This document shows positions 45,088 through 62,805 of a stretch of 64,000 bases of DNA, in pieces. The stretch is from a virus. The first letter of the stretch is position 1; every line of letters begins with the position of its first letter. The notes beneath the pieces are model-generated. The model was not told the origin of the DNA. It did not search any database and saw only the letters and a list, made by a program, of their open reading frames with translations. Both the position numbers and the translations under genes were made by a program. The stretch covers positions 52,404-116,403 of the IMG/VR virus record IMGVR_UViG_3300032782_000001; one strand, given 5' to 3'.

Positions 45088-45159
45088 GAACCCGTAGTTC
45101 AGCGGTAGAACGACTGGCTTTTAACCAGTGCGCCGTGAGTTCGATCCTCACCGGGTTCA
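45088..45159 (+). tRNA. tRNA-Lys(TTT): tRNA-Lys(TTT)
   Basis: acceptor gaacccg/cgggttc; anticodon loop cttttaa; T-arm gtgagttcgatcctcac; CCA encoded. Confidence 0.75.
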
Positions 45160-45177
45160 CCAGTCGTAAGACTGAAT

Positions 45178-45249
45178 GGATCCGTAGTTCAGAGGTAGAA
45201 CAGCTGGCTCTTAACCAGCGTGTCGAGGGTTCGATTCCCTCCGGATCCT
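45178..45249 (+). tRNA. tRNA-Lys(CTT): tRNA-Lys(CTT)
   Basis: acceptor ggatccg/cggatcc; anticodon loop ctcttaa; T-loop ggttcgattcc. Confidence 0.75.
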
Positions 45250-45319
45250 CCGGGCCACGAAAGTGCCTGACGTGTCACATGCGTGCTTCTGCACGCCACG
45301 GTTGAGAAGTGTTCATCAT

Positions 45320-45390
45320 TCGGGGTTAGGACAGTGGCAGTCCAGCGGTCTCTGACACCGCCAACGTGAGTTCGATTCTCACACCCCGGA
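45320..45390 (+). tRNA. tRNA-Gln(CTG): tRNA-Gln(CTG), U1-G72
   Basis: acceptor tcggggt/accccgg; anticodon stem gcggt/accgc, loop ctctgac. Confidence 0.6.
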
Positions 45391-45558
45391 CCAAGCCCAG
45401 ACAAAGGTGCAGGGCTTCGATCTCTGACAATCTAACGCAGAGCGATTGAGAAGGCTCAAGGCAGCTGGAAGTTGCCAAAAGTCTTCAAACCGGGAGCTTC
45501 ATGCCGCAGCCAGGTGGAAGGTGTGGAGCTCCCGGGAACCGAACTCGTGTCGGTTCAG

Positions 45559-45620
45559 GTCTGAAAATAACCAACGGTGGGTCCCGAAAGGGTTAGCGGG
45601 TTCGACTCCCGCTTTCAGAT
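45559..45620 (+). ncRNA. truncated 61-nt tRNA-like element (acceptor + T-arm, no clear D/anticodon arms)
   Basis: tctgaaa...gcgggttcgactcccgc tttcaga t CCA; acceptor halves complementary, canonical T-arm, body too short. Confidence 0.35.
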
Positions 45621-45624
45621 CCAT

Positions 45625-45923
45625 TCCAGGATAGCCAAGCGGAAAGGCAGGTGGCTGTCGATAAGGCAGCGTCTTGGGGTGACCCAAGATGGAAAATCGG
45701 GTGAATTCAAGGAACCCTAAACCGGAAGGTATGGGAACCCTGAGCCAAGCCGGTCGAGGACAAAAGTAGACCGGAAGGTGCAGAGACTAGGAGGTGAGCA
45801 GTCCAGCGATAAACTCCACTAGCGCCCGACGTCCCTCGAGGACGATGAGATAGTCCACGCCTTGAGGAAACTCAAGGGCTTCGTGTAACCACCCTACCGC
45901 AGGTTCGAATCCTGCTCCTGGAG
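45625..45923 (+). tRNA. tRNA with about 225-nt intron in the anticodon loop (probably Thr, anticodon TGT or GGT)
   Basis: 5' exon tccagga-ta-gcc..ggc-a-ggtgg-ct; 3' exon ..taa-ccacc-ctac-gcaggttcgaatcctgc-tcctgga-g-CCA; acceptor and anticodon stems pair across the insertion. Confidence 0.55.
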
Positions 45924-45940
45924 CCATTACAAGCTCGGTA

Positions 45941-46483
45941 ATGTCCTTCATGGACAAAGCCGAGAAACGTCGGAGGACCGCAATCCTCGTCACTGATTTT
46001 CGACGTCGAATCAAGGAGAAAGCTGTCTCCTATAAAGGTGGTCAGTGCCAGAAATGCGGATACGACAAATGCGTGGCCGCTCTCAGTTTCCACCATCGTG
46101 ATCCGAAAGAAAAGGAGTTCCGGCTCTCTTCAGGAAGGACTAAGAATTGGGAGAAGGTCAAGAAGGAGCTCGACAAATGCGATCTCCTTTGCGCGAATTG
46201 TCACATGGAAGTCCATGATCAGTGGAAGCGAGAGGCTCGGGAACAGCACGAAGCGGAAATCGTTTCTCGTCGCCGCCGGCCAAAGACTTCTCGGGTTCAT
46301 AAAGCTCCGGTGATTCGACCCTGGCCTGAATCCGACGAACTGCGGCATCTCGTAGAGACTACTCCGATCACTCATATTGCAAAAATGGTGGGGGTGTCCG
46401 ATAAAGCAGTGCTGAAGCGATGTAAGAAGCTTGACATCGCGACTCACCCCGCAGGATTTTGGGCCCGTAAAAAGGCCGCTTGA
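45941..46483 (+). CDS. HNH homing endonuclease
   Basis: CQKCGY...LSFHHRDPKEKEF...NWEKVKKELDKCDLLCANCH. Confidence 0.6.
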   Translation: MSFMDKAEKRRRTAILVTDFRRRIKEKAVSYKGGQCQKCGYDKCVAALSFHHRDPKEKEFRLSSGRTKNWEKVKKELDKCDLLCANCHMEVHDQWKREAREQHEAEIVSRRRRPKTSRVHKAPVIRPWPESDELRHLVETTPITHIAKMVGVSDKAVLKRCKKLDIATHPAGFWARKKAA

Positions 46484-46485
46484 AT

Positions 46486-46557
46486 GGTGACGAAGCTCAA
46501 TGGTAGAGCAGCAAGTTGTTAACTTGTCGGAAGAAGGTTCGATTCCTTCCGTCATCG
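46486..46557 (+). tRNA. tRNA-Asn(GTT): tRNA-Asn(GTT)
   Basis: D-arm gctcaatggtagagc; anticodon stem gcaag/cttgt, loop ttgttaa; T-arm gaaggttcgattccttc; CCA. Confidence 0.7.
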
Positions 46558-46688
46558 CCATTGTTTAGGTGCCAGACCTCGAATCTGGAATACTTAAACA
46601 GGGTAAGTGGAACCCAAACCCGTAGAAGCTCCGAAAATCAGATGCTGTTTGGTGTAAAAAGTTTTAGAGCAACTACGGGCCACTTCAC

Positions 46689-46760
46689 GCCGGCTTAGTT
46701 CTCGCGGGAGAACCCCTGTTTCGTAATCAGGTGAGAGCGGTTCGACTCCGCTAGCCGGCT
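46689..46760 (+). tRNA. tRNA-Thr(CGT): tRNA-Thr(CGT)
   Basis: acceptor gccggct/agccggc; anticodon loop ttcgtaa; T-arm agcggttcgactccgct. Confidence 0.6.
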
Positions 46761-60941: not shown

Positions 60942-61559
60942 GTGGAACTCAATATGTCTTCGGTTCAGCTGCCGATCGCCGGTGGCAGGTCGTTTCCGAG
61001 CTTCGTTCCTGCCTTCATTGAAGCTGGATTCCAGGAACTCATCGTTCCTGCGCTCGCTTCTCAAGACGTCTTCGTAAAGAAAGCCGGTCCTGAAGTCCTC
61101 GGACAGATGTACACGTTCCCCGACAAAGGCGGGCGTCCGCTCTGTCTTGTACCGGAAATTACCGGTGTAGTCCAGGACCTTTGGAATGAAGGCTTCTTCA
61201 GCCAGCTTCCGAAGCCGATTCGTCTCTTCTACGTCAGCCGATGTTGGCGCTACGAACGTCCACAAGCCGGAAGGTATCGAGAATTCACCCAAGTAGGTGT
61301 GGAGATTCTCGGCGCACGGGACGACCAACGAACAGGATGCATCGACCTTCTCCGTAAATGCTTGGATGCCGTAGGGCTTCAAGGCTACGTCATCAACGAC
61401 GCAGTGAAACGTGGACTCGCTTACTACTTGGAAGACGGGTTTGAAGTGGAATTCGCGGCACTCGGAGCGCAGAAACAAATTGCGGGTGGTGGGAAGTACG
61501 CTGAAGGGATCGGATGGGCCATCGGTCTGGAAAGGCTTTTGTTGGCCTTGAGCACATGA
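60942..61559 (+). CDS. histidyl-tRNA synthetase-like class II catalytic-core fragment (HisZ/HisRS-like, no anticodon-binding domain)
   Basis: motif 2 RCWRYERPQAGRYREFTQVGVEILG and motif 3 GGGKYAEGIGWAIGLERLL, characteristic of the HisRS/HisZ family; only about 205 aa; start uncertain. Confidence 0.6.
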   Translation: MELNMSSVQLPIAGGRSFPSFVPAFIEAGFQELIVPALASQDVFVKKAGPEVLGQMYTFPDKGGRPLCLVPEITGVVQDLWNEGFFSQLPKPIRLFYVSRCWRYERPQAGRYREFTQVGVEILGARDDQRTGCIDLLRKCLDAVGLQGYVINDAVKRGLAYYLEDGFEVEFAALGAQKQIAGGGKYAEGIGWAIGLERLLLALST

Positions 61560-61565
61560 CAGAAA

Positions 61566-61588
61566 ACGAGCGGAAACGCTCGTTTTGG
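61566..61588 (+). terminator. Rho-independent terminator-like hairpin after the HisRS-like gene
   Basis: aaaacgagcg-gaaa-cgctcgtttt: 5-bp GC stem with GAAA loop, followed by TTTT. Confidence 0.5.
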
Positions 61589-61668
61589 AGATCTCCAGCC
61601 GAGGTGGCGAGCCAGCCTTGAAAACTGGTGGGGCGTGAAAGCGCAGGGTTCGATTCCCAAGGTCTCCG
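61588..61668 (+). tRNA. tRNA-Ser(TGA)-like, type II
   Basis: acceptor ggagatc/ggtctcc; loop cttgaaa; variable arm with gcgtgaaagcgc hairpin; weak T-stem. Confidence 0.4.
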
Positions 61669-61695
61669 CTAATTTTCCATACTGTATTCTGGGGA

Positions 61696-62262
61696 ATGTC
61701 AAAGAATGAAATCTATATCTCTACCGATGTAGAGACCGACGGGCCCATCCCGGGCCCGAATTCCATGCTCTCTTTGGGAGCTGCTGCGTTCACGGAAGAT
61801 GGGACCATGGCTTCCACTTTCTCTGTGAATTTCGAAACCCTTCCGGAGGCCTCCGGAGACCCTGACACCATGAATTGGTGGGCGGGGCGGCCCGAGGCTT
61901 GGAAGGCCTGTCGTGAGGCGACGAGACCGCCGGAGAATGCCATCCGGTCCTTCAAGAACTGGGTCGAATCCCTAAATGGGACCCCGGTATTCGTCGGATA
62001 CCCCGCAGGATTCGATTTTCTCTTCGTTTATTGGTATCTCATCCGGTTCACCGGAAAGAGTCCTTTCTCGTTCTCCGCTCTCGACATCAAGTCGTTCGCG
62101 AGCGGACTTCTGGGGACTCAATATCGCGAAACTACCAAACGGAACATGCCGAAAAGGTGGACGGAAAAGCTTCCGTCTCACACTCATGTTGCCGTGGACG
62201 ATGCTATTGAGCAGGGAGTGATGTTTTGTCGAATGCTCAAAGAAAGTCGTAGAAAGAAGTAA
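61696..62262 (+). CDS. DEDDh 3'-5' exonuclease (RNase T / oligoribonuclease-like)
   Basis: [15 protein letters not shown] exo motif I and [13 protein letters not shown] motif III. Confidence 0.55.
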
Positions 62263-62272
62263 TGGAAGGTGA

Positions 62273-62356
62273 CGTCCCGGTGGCGGGACACCGGCCTCGA
62301 AAACCGGGGGCGCTAACCACGCAGAGGTTCGACTCCTCCACCTTCCGCGAGACAGG
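62273..62356 (+). tRNA. tRNA-Ser(CGA): tRNA-Ser(CGA), type II
   Basis: acceptor ggaaggt/accttcc; loop ctcgaaa; long variable arm; T-loop ggttcgactcc. Confidence 0.55.
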
Positions 62357-62434
62357 TACGTCAAGGGCGGGCCTCCATGAGGTTCCGCGGGCTTCGGCTG
62401 CAAATGACCTTGACGTACCGAATTTGGAGGATGA

Positions 62435-62519
62435 ACTGGACGGGGTCCAGACCGGTTTGCTAAACCGAGTGGCGCTGAAAGGCGTTTGGGTTCGAGACCT
62501 ACTTCCTCCGCCGAGTTAC
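62435..62519 (+). tRNA. tRNA-Ser(GCT): tRNA-Ser(GCT), type II
   Basis: acceptor ggaggat/ttcctcc; loop ttgctaa; variable arm with gcgctgaaaggcg hairpin. Confidence 0.5.
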
Positions 62520-62608
62520 GCTCGTAGGGTGTTGCTGACCGGAAGGCAGCAACCGGGAGGCCTTCGGGCCAACCGACTTAGCAGCCCCCACGAGCACTTG
62601 CCGCTGTC

Positions 62609-62681
62609 GTTCAGTCTGGTAGGACGTCTCCCTTGTAAGGAGAATACGCGGGTTCAAATCCTGTCGGCGGCTCAAATTAAG
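62609..62681 (+). tRNA. tRNA-Thr(TGT): tRNA-Thr(TGT)
   Basis: acceptor gccgctg/cggcggc; D-arm gttcagtctggtaggac; stem tctcc/ggaga, loop cttgtaa. Confidence 0.7.
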
Positions 62682-62695
62682 TATATTCGGGGATA

Positions 62696-62768
62696 GGACA
62701 GTGGCCTAGTCCGCCCGGCTTTGACCCGGGACACGAGGGTTCGAATCCCTCTCCCCGGACCATTAATT
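62696..62768 (+). tRNA. tRNA-Gln(TTG): tRNA-Gln(TTG), U1-G72
   Basis: acceptor tcgggga/tccccgg; stem cccgg/ccggg, loop ctttgac; CCA. Confidence 0.65.
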
Positions 62769-62805
62769 CCTCTAATCAGTCTTCTCTCGCTCTGTAATGT
62801 TGTGA

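Follow-up and report, generated by a model that had tools for sequence, protein, structure and literature searches.

A complete tRNA island of a probable huge phage, with a predicted group I intron in tRNA-Asn and a family of long-arm tRNA-like RNAs

We analysed a 64,000-nucleotide stretch of viral DNA (IMG/VR record IMGVR_UViG_3300032782_000001, positions 52,404 to 116,403), referred to here as the window, whose last third carries a dense array of tRNA genes at 44939-62762, all on the + strand. This array is very probably the tRNA island of an uncultivated huge phage, inherited as a module and comprising a complete decoding set, interspersed endonuclease genes, a split tRNA-Asn and a series of long-arm tRNA-like RNAs. 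The island itself is of a known huge-phage kind; its additional interest lies in a group I intron at the 35/36 site of a tRNA gene and, above all, in the widespread family to which the long-arm RNAs belong.

A complete decoding set in an inherited module

At default settings ARAGORN called 44 tRNA genes in the window; every one is on the + strand within 45088-62762, and the other 45 kb yielded no call. Rfam at its curated gathering threshold likewise returned 44 tRNA matches over the same range, together with one group I intron at 45647-45877; three of these tRNAs (47452-47519, 58807-58887 and 59947-60027) are not among the default ARAGORN calls. Permissive Rfam searches added a tRNA at 48937-49008 (42.6 bits) and sub-threshold tRNA-clan matches at 61586, 62426, 54269 and 51339, and ARAGORN at 80-90% of its thresholds reported Asp GUC (48937), Ser UGA (61586), Ser GCU (62426), Trp CCA (51340) and Tyr GUA (44939-45016); the split tRNA at 45625-45926 was called once introns were allowed. 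Taken together, relaxed searches and orthologues in related phages contribute nine genes beyond the default calls and bring the number with an assignable anticodon to 53, besides which there are five long-arm tRNA-like genes, one mini element with no anticodon and one 3' fragment, or about 60 tRNA-like elements (Table 1). At 44-64 kb the + strand has 51 perfect matches to a T-arm motif (NNNNN-TTCRANN-NNNNN), whereas the other 44 kb of that strand hold a single one and the whole - strand has 5.

An earlier note on this DNA, made from the letters alone, had put the count at about 55 tRNA or tRNA-like genes, which was a fair estimate, and had forecast that automated finders would confirm the canonical genes and miss the atypical ones, as they did at default settings; with 44 accepted by each program, the finders did not reject most of the genes. 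The range it had proposed, 45088-62771, is right for the core, within which all the default calls lie, but its start has to be moved: the note had recognised no Tyr tRNA, and a tRNA-Tyr(GUA) exists at 44939-45016, 72 nt upstream. The group I intron and the long-arm family likewise find no mention in the note. A related contig, L095, has a tRNA-Tyr in the same place, directly upstream of Lys-Lys, and the anticodon-stem differences between the two genes are compensatory. (Labels of the form L0xx, and L165, denote other contigs used for comparison, and P0xxx denotes proteins from homology searches.)

The 53 genes carry 44 distinct anticodons and, once Tyr and the Trp-like gene are counted, serve all 20 amino acids: Lys UUU and CUU; Gln CUG and UUG; Asn GUU (two genes); Thr CGU, GGU and UGU; Glu UUC and CUC (two); Phe GAA; Pro UGG, CGG and GGG; His GUG; Arg CCU, UCU, ACG, UCG and CCG; Asp GUC (two); Ala GGC (two), CGC and UGC; Gly UCC, GCC and CCC; Cys GCA; CAU (four); Val UAC, CAC and GAC; Ile GAU; Leu CAG, GAG (two), UAG, UAA and CAA; Ser GGA, UGA, CGA and GCU, plus a class-I-shaped GGA gene; Tyr GUA; and Trp CCA. 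Every anticodon listed in the earlier note was recovered by ARAGORN, Rfam, relaxed runs or hand folds, including those of the three weakest Leu genes, read by hand as UAG, UAA and CAA in good 5-bp stems, and the set that it had described as near-complete is in fact complete. Under standard wobble rules it is predicted to read all 61 sense codons. The Trp-like gene is the least secure member of the set and reaches only 22.6 bits, against a gathering threshold of 47, with the Rfam tRNA-Sec model RF01852 (clan CL00001). CCA is encoded by only 17 of 44 tRNA genes. Codon usage across 19 open reading frames (ORFs) of the window is balanced, with a G+C content at third codon positions (GC3) of 0.56, and the duplicated Leu(GAG) and Ala(GGC) genes match the commonest Leu and Ala codons of the same ORFs. 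Promoter and terminator scans of the region returned sites no more numerous than in shuffled sequence; the top sigma-70-like promoter match lies at 44872-44899 (TCGACA, 16 nt, TACAAT, with an upstream TG), 40 nt before tRNA-Tyr.

Because no capsid or terminase gene lies in the window, the phage placement rests on context. The source is a 436,316-bp JGI metagenomic contig that bears the exact M16 peptidase and EF-Tu proteins of the island, and RtcB is also present on the Logan assembly of SRR8881007. The main structural phage evidence within the window consists of two collagen-repeat proteins (36585-39500 and 39538-40521) that match tail-fibre PHROGs, and short ORFs with no assigned function are plentiful. 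Once its reading frame is repaired, EF-Tu shares 82-90% identity with proteins from many contigs of 100-530 kb, but no more than 61% with any of 185,579 GTDB representative bacterial and archaeal genomes, where its best matches are scattered over many phyla. This marks it as a phage-lineage EF-Tu, from which no host can be read, and the divergence suggests a long-standing phage-specific EF-Tu clade.

Three relatives, L095 (120 kb), L096 (114 kb) and L097 (440 kb), whose EF-Tu is 87-89% identical to that of the island, each have 37-40 ARAGORN tRNAs within 21 kb around the EF-Tu gene. Gene order is conserved across them (Tyr-Lys-Lys-...-Asn-Thr-Glu-Phe-Pro... and Ala-Ala-Ala-Thr-Gly-Gly-Gly-Cys-M16-Arg...); L096 also shares the M16 peptidase, an HNH gene, a major-vault-protein (MVP)-like protein and RtcB, and an M16 peptidase stands among the tRNAs both there and in the more distant relatives L004 and L006. 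Since the island recurs with similar order in phage contigs of 114-440 kb, we regard it as an inherited module of a huge-phage clade. Its compactness varies: L097 packs 34 tRNAs into 4.5 kb, as opposed to 18 kb here, where endonucleases, repeats and additional genes account for the extra length. Megablast of the whole island against 50,697 GenBank phage records gave no match, and a search of IMG/VR with the M16 peptidase found no relatives.

Large tRNA arrays also exist on bacterial mobile elements, and a setting on a bacterial chromosome, a plasmid or another non-viral element, comparable to the arrays of Mycobacterium, cyanobacteria and Firmicutes, has to be considered. Profile searches of the 64-kb window identified no capsid, portal or terminase gene, and L096 was deposited within a bacterial metagenome-assembled genome (MAG; GCA_037024595.1), both of which would fit such an origin. 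Nevertheless, we judge it very improbable given the tail-fibre matches and the many short ORFs of no assigned function, the clustering of related contigs at 350-440 kb with many of them in IMG/VR, the abundance of free-standing homing endonucleases, and an EF-Tu that is so much closer to proteins on these contigs than to those of any representative cellular genome.

A huge-phage origin, by contrast, places the island in familiar company. Huge phages with up to 67 tRNAs per genome and with EF-Tu have been reported (Al-Shayeb et al. 2020, PMC7162821), and Xanthomonas phage XacN1 has 56 tRNAs for all 20 amino acids (PMC5852040), located in its case in terminal repeats. As in these arrays, dozens of clustered, co-oriented tRNAs for all amino acids sit in a genome of more than 200 kb, accompanied by EF-Tu, aminoacyl-tRNA-synthetase-like genes and RNA ligases; unlike the known arrays, the island adds a tRNA group I intron, oversized tRNA-like RNAs and Leu tRNAs with no long variable arm. 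The view of the earlier note that this is a phage tRNA island of the T4-like or huge-phage type, with free-standing homing endonucleases, is supported by the 436-kb source contig, the tail-fibre hits and the relatives. As for the host, EF-Tu gave no answer (best identity 61%, top matches in scattered phyla). Among named cellular proteins, those closest to the M16 peptidase (about 36% identity) come from Patescibacteria and, together with the intron site discussed below, hint weakly at a Patescibacteria host or at gene flow; the links to this group are limited to these two features, and we do not adopt it as the host.

Long-arm tRNA-like RNAs

The T-arm scan and a repeat finder exposed five tandem units of about 125 nt (u1-u5 in Table 1), spaced at about 160 nt, that no tool had called: over 46807-47422 and 47587-47707 the Rfam tRNA model RF00005 gave no match at E<=5 and ARAGORN at default settings made no call. 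A class-I-shaped tRNA with the anticodon GGA (47452-47519) is placed within the array. Each long-arm unit folds into a 7-bp acceptor stem, a D arm (GGGC-ACGGC-GCCC), an anticodon-like hairpin, an extra arm, a single-stranded UACAAGC and a normal T arm. The extra arm, which occupies the position of the variable arm and is conserved, measures 40-60 nt and consists of 2 + 5 bp, a 5x5 internal loop and a 6-bp stem with a GNRA tetraloop. In the acceptor, D, T and extra-arm helices, to which all our counts refer (the anticodon-arm hairpin, seen only in single-sequence folds, was left out), 99.3% of the pair cells of the five copies are paired, with double changes in 13 of the 29 pairs.

The family extends well beyond the window. 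A covariance model built from the five copies (R1) found seven further copies in L095, L096 and L097 at 42-67 bits, compared with at most 37 bits for ordinary tRNAs, and a loose DNA pattern scan of IMG/VR followed by R1 yielded 54 copies (E<=1e-5, 39-94 bits) of 119-153 nt, often grouped in arrays of 3-7; the contigs concerned measure 28-529 kb. At four loci that we checked, the long-arm RNAs lie among tRNAs of the same strand and are not called by ARAGORN. Over 59 members, double changes occur in 28 of the 29 pairs, and pairing holds in 96.9% of cells, as against 43-54% in controls with slid partners; the alignment was fitted to R1, which somewhat inflates the pairing figures, but the contrast with the controls is still large. 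We consider the structure and the distribution of the long-arm RNAs to be established. A strict version of the pattern had no match in IMG/VR, and three matches to it in a scan of a single metagenome were judged to be due to chance, there being neither a called tRNA nor a tRNA-like fold at those places.

What the anticodon position offers is far less uniform. By hand count, about one third of the 59 members have a canonical CU-NNN-AA/AC loop (GUU, UCC, CAU, CUU, GAA and others), about one quarter have 7-nt loops that lack U33 (for example five of the form NNGUAAA), and the rest have loops of other sizes.

Nothing in the reference collections corresponds to these RNAs. Rfam 15 holds no matching family, a review of non-canonical tRNAs describes nothing that resembles them, and blastn of the long-arm arrays against GenBank phages gave either nothing or only an ordinary tRNA. 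The variable arms of class II tRNAs reach roughly 20 nt, and the tRNA mimic YrlA has a link to RNA repair loci of the RtcB type. Published accounts put the class II arms at 'greater than 10 nucleotides' (PMC7609411) and describe the YrlA link (PMC7824862). In the long-arm RNAs, as in class II tRNAs (Leu, Ser, Tyr, Sec), an additional arm separates the anticodon arm from the T arm, but the long-arm RNAs differ from class II tRNAs and YrlA in the size of that region (about 55-70 nt), in its conserved internal loop and in the frequent GNRA tetraloop. The nearby RtcB, von Willebrand A (VWA) and MVP-like genes prompted the idea of a Ro60/Y-RNA or vault-RNA system, which we dropped as unsupported: the covariance model of YrlA gave no match on the long-arm units, and the VWA protein of L095 showed no TROVE domain in Pfam and no Ro60 match among PDB sequences and has no counterpart in the window. 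A C-terminal VWA domain does recur in proteins of about 620-640 aa encoded in or beside phage tRNA islands (L095:2302-4167; L096:19918-end, by RtcB; L013:4463-end).

The nearest report is that of oversized tRNAs in Lak megaphages, in which Phe(GAA), Gly(UCC), Thr(UGU) and Tyr(GUA) genes contain unclassified insertions termed 'enigmatic introns' (Devoto et al., 10.1101/356790). Both groups belong to very large phages, are overlong, are missed or left unclassified by standard tools and have insertions that Rfam does not know; the Lak insertions were modelled as anticodon-loop introns, whereas here a covarying arm stands at the variable-arm position, a comparison made by description only. The resemblance raises the question of whether the 40-60-nt insertion is itself intron-like and is removed, for instance by an endonuclease with ligation by RtcB, to leave tRNAs of ordinary size. 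Similar triplets occur in the Lak genes and in the long-arm family, the ligase is encoded nearby and, in the folds, deletion of the arm leaves a normal cloverleaf. On the other hand, the insertion sits in the variable-arm position and not in the anticodon loop, none of the intron or ribozyme families of Rfam matches it, a splicing endonuclease was not found, and many copies would still have non-canonical anticodon loops after its removal. Moreover, covariation keeps the helices of the arm as if they were part of the mature fold, and an arm kept as structure makes removal less likely; overall we consider it improbable.

The long-arm RNAs may form a new family and, with low confidence, we suggest that they are processed like tRNAs (by RNase P) and act as nuclease-resistant tRNAs or as decoys for host defences that target tRNAs.

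The split tRNA-Asn and its predicted group I intron

The intron within the first tRNA-Asn gene matches the group I intron family RF00028 with 76.6 bits (gathering threshold 50, E=1e-17) over the full model (positions 1-253). In the P1 helix of the Rfam alignment, exon GCUGU pairs with intron GCAGC, the sole U.G wobble falls at U45658 and the terminal base of the intron is G45885. The wobble sets the 5' splice site after U35, and the terminal G sets the beginning of the 3' exon at U45886, so that the spliced loop reads CUGUUAA with the anticodon GUU (Asn). The predicted ligation releases the 227-nt intron and joins GGUGGCUGU directly to UAACCACC (that is, ...GGCUGU followed by UAACCACC...). Default ARAGORN calls the spliced product tRNA-Asn(GUU), and the cloverleaf is perfect in either splice register. 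ARAGORN had read the unspliced gene as Thr(UGU) with an intron at 33/34, a reading that we rejected in favour of Asn(GUU) at 35/36 on the strength of the P1 wobble, of G73 with U1-A72 and of an intron-less homologue. U1-A72 and G73 are features of E. coli tRNA-Asn as well.

The homologue, an intron-less tRNA-Asn(GUU) at L013:2060-2132 (also in L014), shares 83% identity with the spliced exons; its anticodon arm is the same, and the changes that set its acceptor and T stems apart are compensatory. A second, intron-less tRNA-Asn gene lies at 46486 in the island, and the resident Asn genes of L095 and L097 match the spliced gene at 78% and 72% identity, as compared with only 58% and 64% for this second copy, from which it follows that the clade's resident tRNA-Asn acquired the intron. 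Given the family match, the intron is predicted to be self-splicing. A 31-nt insertion between P7 and P3' would fit the P7.1/P7.2 elements of subgroup IA, as judged from the Rfam alignment only. Five related tRNA-island loci scanned with Rfam held no group I intron, and the exact P1 string of the intron, searched in IMG/VR, gave no relatives.

An HNH endonuclease gene (45941-46483) begins 14 nt beyond the split tRNA-Asn. The full-length homologue closest to it (P0125, 45% identity) occurs in L013 and L014, where 27 nt separate it from the intron-less tRNA-Asn upstream, and another homologue adjoins tRNA-Arg, tRNA-Arg and tRNA-Tyr in a bacterial MAG, so that this HNH lineage is one associated with tRNA genes. 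Group I introns at the 35/36 site of tRNA-Asn and tRNA-Asp are enriched in Patescibacteria, are mostly of subgroup IA and splice in vitro; ARAGORN miscalls them as Thr(UGU) with a 33/34 intron, and in four cases an HNH gene lies inside the intron (Nakagawa et al. 2026, PMC13011429). The site in tRNA-Asn(GUU), the miscall and the association with HNH are the same here, but the genome is that of a huge phage, the intron is ORF-less and the HNH gene is free-standing, 14 nt beyond the tRNA. An ORF-less intron next to a free-standing endonuclease gene is also the arrangement of collaborative homing (PMC3984707), although cutting of the insertion site by this HNH protein would be hypothetical. According to the same review, all phage group I introns known up to 2014 lay in protein-coding genes; after that date, the preprint on Lak megaphages described unclassified 'introns' in tRNAs of phages (10.1101/356790).

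Neighbouring genes, atypical tRNAs and the role of the island

Pfam bears out EF-Tu, the HisRS-like core, the M16 peptidase and RtcB, all named in the earlier note, and Pfam and PHROGs agree with its four HNH genes and one GIY-YIG gene between tRNA blocks, the HNH assignment of 51758-52102 being weak. Only 3-30 nt separate the HNH genes at 45941-46483 and 57927-58295 from the adjoining tRNA genes, and the true start of the GIY-YIG ORF is probably an ATG near 50521. Free-standing endonuclease genes between tRNA genes are also seen in phage T4, with its GIY-YIG gene segB (PMC2330249; PMC13096335), and in both systems preferential inheritance or amplification of the tRNA region is the expected effect; T4 has 8 tRNAs and one endonuclease, as against 53 tRNAs, four HNH genes and one GIY-YIG gene predicted from sequence here.

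The EF-Tu frame is broken at a run of nine T (50292-50300), with the last 60 residues in another frame; a run of eight would restore an intact 388-aa protein. On the source contig, the JGI gene call (P0280) is shortened likewise, and an intact EF-Tu on another contig (P0241) is 98% identical. A homopolymer error or a very recent mutation is the likeliest cause, and slippage is a further candidate. We rejected a split of EF-Tu by an intron or intein carrying the GIY-YIG gene, as the frame is lost through one surplus T in a homopolymer and the GIY-YIG ORF follows the complete gene.

Several other genes deserve mention. The cREC_REC protein in the island and RtcB 40 kb upstream resemble an RNA-repair pair. 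A nicotinate phosphoribosyltransferase gene (NAD salvage) lies at 42836-44182, directly upstream of the island. An 868-aa ORF at 30600-33206 (-) contains major-vault-protein shoulder (Pfam 4e-29) and Vault_3 repeat (1.2e-10) domains; an MVP-like protein is unusual in a phage, and a homologue at L096:15473-17983 adjoins four tRNA-Ser genes and RtcB. Near the M16 peptidase of a 246-kb related phage contig there is a 737-aa protein with a weak Cas12f1-like TNB (TnpB/Cas12-type) domain (L002:4037-6250, L003:200-2413).

Among the tRNAs, five Leu genes depart from the bacterial norm. In Leu(UAG), Leu(UAA) and Leu(CAA), of 81 nt each, position 9 is followed by 7 extra nt, the D arm is of the Leu type and the variable region has only 6 nt; extra nucleotides 1-3 pair with variable-region nucleotides 1-3 in a 3-bp helix (AGC/GCU, GGA/UCC, GGG/CCC). 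All 69 pair cells of the three genes are paired (100%), with double changes in two of the three extra pairs; the helix may be a relocated or 'split' variable-arm helix. A further two, Leu(CAG) and one of the Leu(GAG) genes, lack a long variable arm, as do Leu isoacceptors of L096 at 12551-12624, 12830-12903 and 12946-13021, all of these genes being short (74-76 nt) with a variable loop of 4-6 nt; several tRNA-Leu of the clade have thus lost the long variable arm typical of bacterial tRNA-Leu. The mini element, directly upstream of the split tRNA-Asn, combines a 7-bp acceptor stem, a D-like arm, a CCC-GAAA-GGG mini-hairpin in place of the anticodon arm, a T arm and then U+CCA.

Table 1. Features of the tRNA island and of RtcB in the window (scores in bits are Rfam tRNA scores unless another model is named; R1 is the long-arm covariance model)
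Feature	Position	Strand	Support or remark
RtcB	16789-17997		Pfam
tRNA-Tyr(GUA), class II, weak	44939-45016	+	ARAGORN only at -ps90; 79% identical to default-called tRNA-Tyr of L095
tRNA-Lys(UUU)	45088-45162	+	ARAGORN; 68.8 bits
tRNA-Lys(CUU)	45178-45251	+	ARAGORN; 70.3 bits
tRNA-Gln(CUG)	45320-45393	+	ARAGORN; 57.4 bits
Mini tRNA-like element, 64 nt	45560-45623	+	Read from sequence; weak R1 match, 23.8 bits
tRNA-Asn(GUU) 5' exon, ends at U35	45625-45658	+	ARAGORN -i; P1 U.G at U45658
Group I intron, 227 nt, ORF-less, between tRNA positions 35 and 36	45659-45885	+	Rfam RF00028
tRNA-Asn(GUU) 3' exon (U36 to G73, then CCA)	45886-45926	+	ARAGORN -i; spliced product; L013 homologue
HNH homing endonuclease, free-standing, C-terminal helix-turn-helix	45941-46483	+	PHROG 2255 HNH, E=2.5e-29
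Second tRNA-Asn(GUU), divergent, intron-less	46486-46560	+	ARAGORN; 65.7 bits; 58% identical to spliced copy
tRNA-Thr(CGU)	46689-46762	+	ARAGORN; 45.4 bits
Long-arm u1, 6-nt loop GUGAAA	46807-46928	+	R1 122.7 bits; no ARAGORN default, no Rfam at E<=5
Long-arm u2, loop CUGUUAA (GUU)	46965-47088	+	Fold, pair counts, R1
Long-arm u3, loop CAUCCAA, A33	47121-47253	+	Fold, pair counts, R1
Long-arm u4, loop CAAUAAA, A33	47289-47422	+	Fold, pair counts, R1
Class-I-shaped tRNA, anticodon GGA, C33	47452-47519	+	45.3 bits; ARAGORN relaxed only
Long-arm u5, 9-nt loop containing GAA	47587-47707	+	Fold, pair counts, R1
tRNA-Glu(UUC)	47714-47787	+	ARAGORN; 49 bits
tRNA-Phe(GAA)	47914-47990	+	ARAGORN; 30.3 bits
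3' fragment of long-arm unit (AACAAGC motif, T arm, acceptor 3' strand)	48005-48052	+	T-arm scan; R1 19.3 bits
tRNA-Pro(UGG)	48160-48235	+	ARAGORN; 65.8 bits
tRNA-His(GUG)	48703-48778	+	ARAGORN; 38 bits
tRNA-Arg(CCU)	48779-48854	+	ARAGORN; 66.8 bits
tRNA-Asp(GUC), first copy	48937-49008	+	42.6 bits (permissive); ARAGORN relaxed
tRNA-Asp(GUC), second copy	49089-49167	+	ARAGORN; 54 bits
EF-Tu, frameshifted	49316-50486	+	Pfam GTP_EFTU, D2, D3; C-terminus in another frame
GIY-YIG homing endonuclease ORF	50434-51330	+	Pfam GIY-YIG 5.4e-07; SegE_GIY-YIG
tRNA-Trp(CCA)-like, degenerate	51340-51409	+	ARAGORN -ps80; hand fold; 68% identical to L165 tRNA-Trp
tRNA-Ala(GGC)	51549-51621	+	ARAGORN; 52.2 bits
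Small HNH-like ORF, weak	51758-52102	+	PHROG 1271 HNH, 5.9e-07
tRNA-Ala(CGC)	52196-52269	+	ARAGORN; 45.9 bits
tRNA-Ala(GGC), second copy	52737-52811	+	ARAGORN; 65.4 bits
tRNA-Ala(UGC)	53044-53117	+	ARAGORN; 71.3 bits
tRNA-Thr(GGU)	53433-53508	+	ARAGORN; 43.2 bits
tRNA-Gly(UCC)	53538-53610	+	ARAGORN; 64 bits
tRNA-Gly(GCC)	53829-53900	+	ARAGORN; 60.9 bits
tRNA-Gly(CCC)	54111-54184	+	ARAGORN; 58.4 bits
tRNA-Cys(GCA)	54270-54341	+	ARAGORN default; Rfam sub-threshold only
M16 (pitrilysin-type) peptidase	54375-55643	+	Pfam
tRNA-Arg(UCU)	55649-55724	+	ARAGORN; 57.5 bits
tRNA-Glu(CUC)	55784-55860	+	ARAGORN; 55.7 bits
tRNA-Glu(CUC), second copy	55862-55937	+	ARAGORN; 51.5 bits
tRNA-Arg(ACG)	56209-56284	+	ARAGORN; 50.5 bits
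tRNA-Arg(UCG)	56286-56359	+	ARAGORN; 65.7 bits
tRNA-Arg(CCG)	56570-56639	+	ARAGORN default only
CAU tRNA (Met or Ile2 type)	56645-56718	+	ARAGORN; 63.4 bits
CAU tRNA, GGG/CCC in anticodon stem, initiator-like	56719-56791	+	ARAGORN; 33.3 bits; sequence
CAU tRNA	56887-56961	+	ARAGORN; 45.8 bits
cREC_REC (cyclic-phosphate-processing receiver) domain protein	57303-57614	+	Pfam PF20274, 1.2e-16
tRNA-Pro(CGG)	57616-57690	+	ARAGORN; 63.1 bits
tRNA-Val(UAC)	57702-57776	+	ARAGORN; 68 bits
CAU tRNA, fourth copy	57820-57896	+	ARAGORN; 51.3 bits
HNH homing endonuclease, paralogue of 45941-46483, between two tRNA genes	57927-58295	+	PHROG 3106 and 2255, E ~1e-21
tRNA-Val(CAC)	58300-58374	+	ARAGORN; 42.5 bits
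tRNA-Ile(GAU)	58376-58450	+	ARAGORN; 65.6 bits
tRNA-Val(GAC)	58453-58527	+	ARAGORN; 41 bits
Atypical tRNA-Leu(UAG)	58807-58887	+	38.2 bits; hand fold; pair counts
tRNA-Leu(CAG), 74 nt, no long variable arm	59272-59345	+	ARAGORN; 57.2 bits; fold
tRNA-Leu(GAG), 75 nt, no long variable arm	59353-59427	+	ARAGORN; 56.9 bits
tRNA-Leu(GAG), canonical class II	59432-59517	+	ARAGORN; 53.7 bits
Atypical tRNA-Leu(UAA), same architecture as 58807 gene	59947-60027	+	33.2 bits; hand fold; pair counts
Atypical tRNA-Leu(CAA), same architecture as 58807 gene	60033-60113	+	32.9 bits; ARAGORN call shifted to 60037-60114
HNH homing endonuclease	60192-60704	+	Pfam HNH_5 1.9e-15, HNH 5e-15
tRNA-Pro(GGG)	60744-60818	+	ARAGORN; 50.5 bits
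tRNA-Ser(GGA)	60828-60913	+	ARAGORN; 32.5 bits
HisRS-like class II core fragment, 205 aa	60942-61559	+	Pfam tRNA-synt_His 2.2e-18, profile positions 23-148 of 308
tRNA-Ser(UGA)	61586-61669	+	ARAGORN relaxed; tRNA-Sec RF01852 (clan CL00001) 30.8 bits, gathering 47
Rv2179c-like 3'-5' exoribonuclease	61696-62262	+	Pfam PF16473, 4.7e-09
tRNA-Ser(CGA)	62264-62348	+	ARAGORN default
tRNA-Ser(GCU)	62426-62512	+	ARAGORN relaxed; tRNA-Sec RF01852 (clan CL00001) 37 bits, gathering 47
tRNA-Thr(UGU)	62600-62673	+	ARAGORN; 59.5 bits
tRNA-Gln(UUG), last island gene	62687-62762	+	ARAGORN; 59.5 bits

How such an island would work can be sketched from better-known phages. Judging by T4 and jumbo phages, the tRNA genes are probably co-transcribed, with host RNase P and 3' processing enzymes releasing the individual tRNAs; a decoding set of its own would sustain translation of the phage if host tRNAs were depleted or cut, RtcB and the cREC protein would reseal tRNAs after cleavage, and delivery to the ribosome would fall to the phage EF-Tu. 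By analogy with T4 SegB, the endonucleases would cut endonuclease-free relatives during co-infection and thereby copy themselves together with neighbouring tRNA genes, and at some point the resident tRNA-Asn(GUU) would have gained its putatively self-splicing intron between positions 35 and 36. The extensive take-over of host translation that the earlier note drew from these genes remains an inference.

Some of our own observations weigh against parts of this picture. EF-Tu is frameshifted in the assembly and the HisRS-like ORF is a fragment, which weakens the case for a working translation module. About a dozen tRNA genes are atypical, with Tyr, the Trp-like gene, Cys, Arg(CCG), two Ser and three Leu low-scoring or found only by relaxed searches, and some of them may be pseudogenes. 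A canonical 7-nt loop with U33 is present in only one of the five long-arm copies of the window (u2), so that most of them probably do not decode. Finally, the HNH homologue in L013 adjoins an intron-less tRNA-Asn with the same anticodon arm, where the idea that the intron protects against HNH is unsupported, and this calls for caution about HNH cutting at the 35/36 site.

One could go further and see much of the island as a decaying product of endonuclease-shuffled duplication, in which the atypical tRNAs, long-arm repeats, mini element and fragments would be pseudogenes or selfish repeats with no role as RNA. The frameshifted EF-Tu, the truncated HisRS-like ORF, the long-arm 3' fragment, the element with no anticodon, the several non-canonical loops and the spread over 18 kb, when L097 fits 34 tRNAs into 4.5 kb, are all consistent with decay. 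Against this, compensatory changes keep every long-arm helix, including that of the extra arm, across 59 copies from many contigs; they do the same for the additional helix in the three Leu tRNAs and also distinguish the weak Tyr gene from its orthologue, and gene order is conserved among relatives. We hold decay on this scale to be unlikely.

A different question is why such a module is kept. It may serve mainly in counter-defence and not in codon adaptation, replacing host tRNAs cut by anticodon nucleases and other defences directed at tRNAs, with repair by RtcB and cREC and with the non-U33 loops and oversized RNAs as resistant variants or decoys. In its favour, the set is complete and not biased to a few codons, the codon usage of the phage is balanced, RtcB is in the window and the cREC protein and a 3'-5' exoribonuclease are in the island, and many long-arm members have GUA, GUU, GUC, UCC or CAU triplets in loops that lack U33. 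The literature offers parallels in defences that cleave tRNA-Tyr and in SegB-driven amplification of tRNA loci (PMC13096335) and in the RNA repair ligases of jumbo phages (PMC7824862). The argument is purely inferential and compatible with a general supply of tRNAs, and it concerns the selective reason for the island and not its nature; we put it forward as a tentative possibility that deserves to be taken seriously. Just as tentatively, the long-arm RNAs could be an undescribed and widespread class of phage RNA, made up of oversized defence-escaping tRNAs or decoys, and the split tRNA-Asn the first documented group I intron in a phage tRNA.

Considered as an inherited huge-phage module, the island is one more well-documented complete tRNA set of a huge phage, and it marks out a clade whose EF-Tu forms a lineage of its own. 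How much drift of tRNA architecture is tolerated while the synthetase, probably, still recognises its substrate is a question on which the Leu tRNAs bear, some having a seemingly relocated helix and others no long variable arm. A predicted self-splicing intron in a phage tRNA gene contradicts the pattern by which phage group I introns are confined to protein-coding genes, and the split tRNA-Asn links phages to the 35/36 introns of Patescibacteria, offering a testable route for the spread of such introns and their HNH partners. Above all, a long-arm family that standard annotation misses means that phage tRNA repertoires are undercounted, and these RNAs may be a new participant in the arms race that phages and bacterial defences wage over tRNAs.

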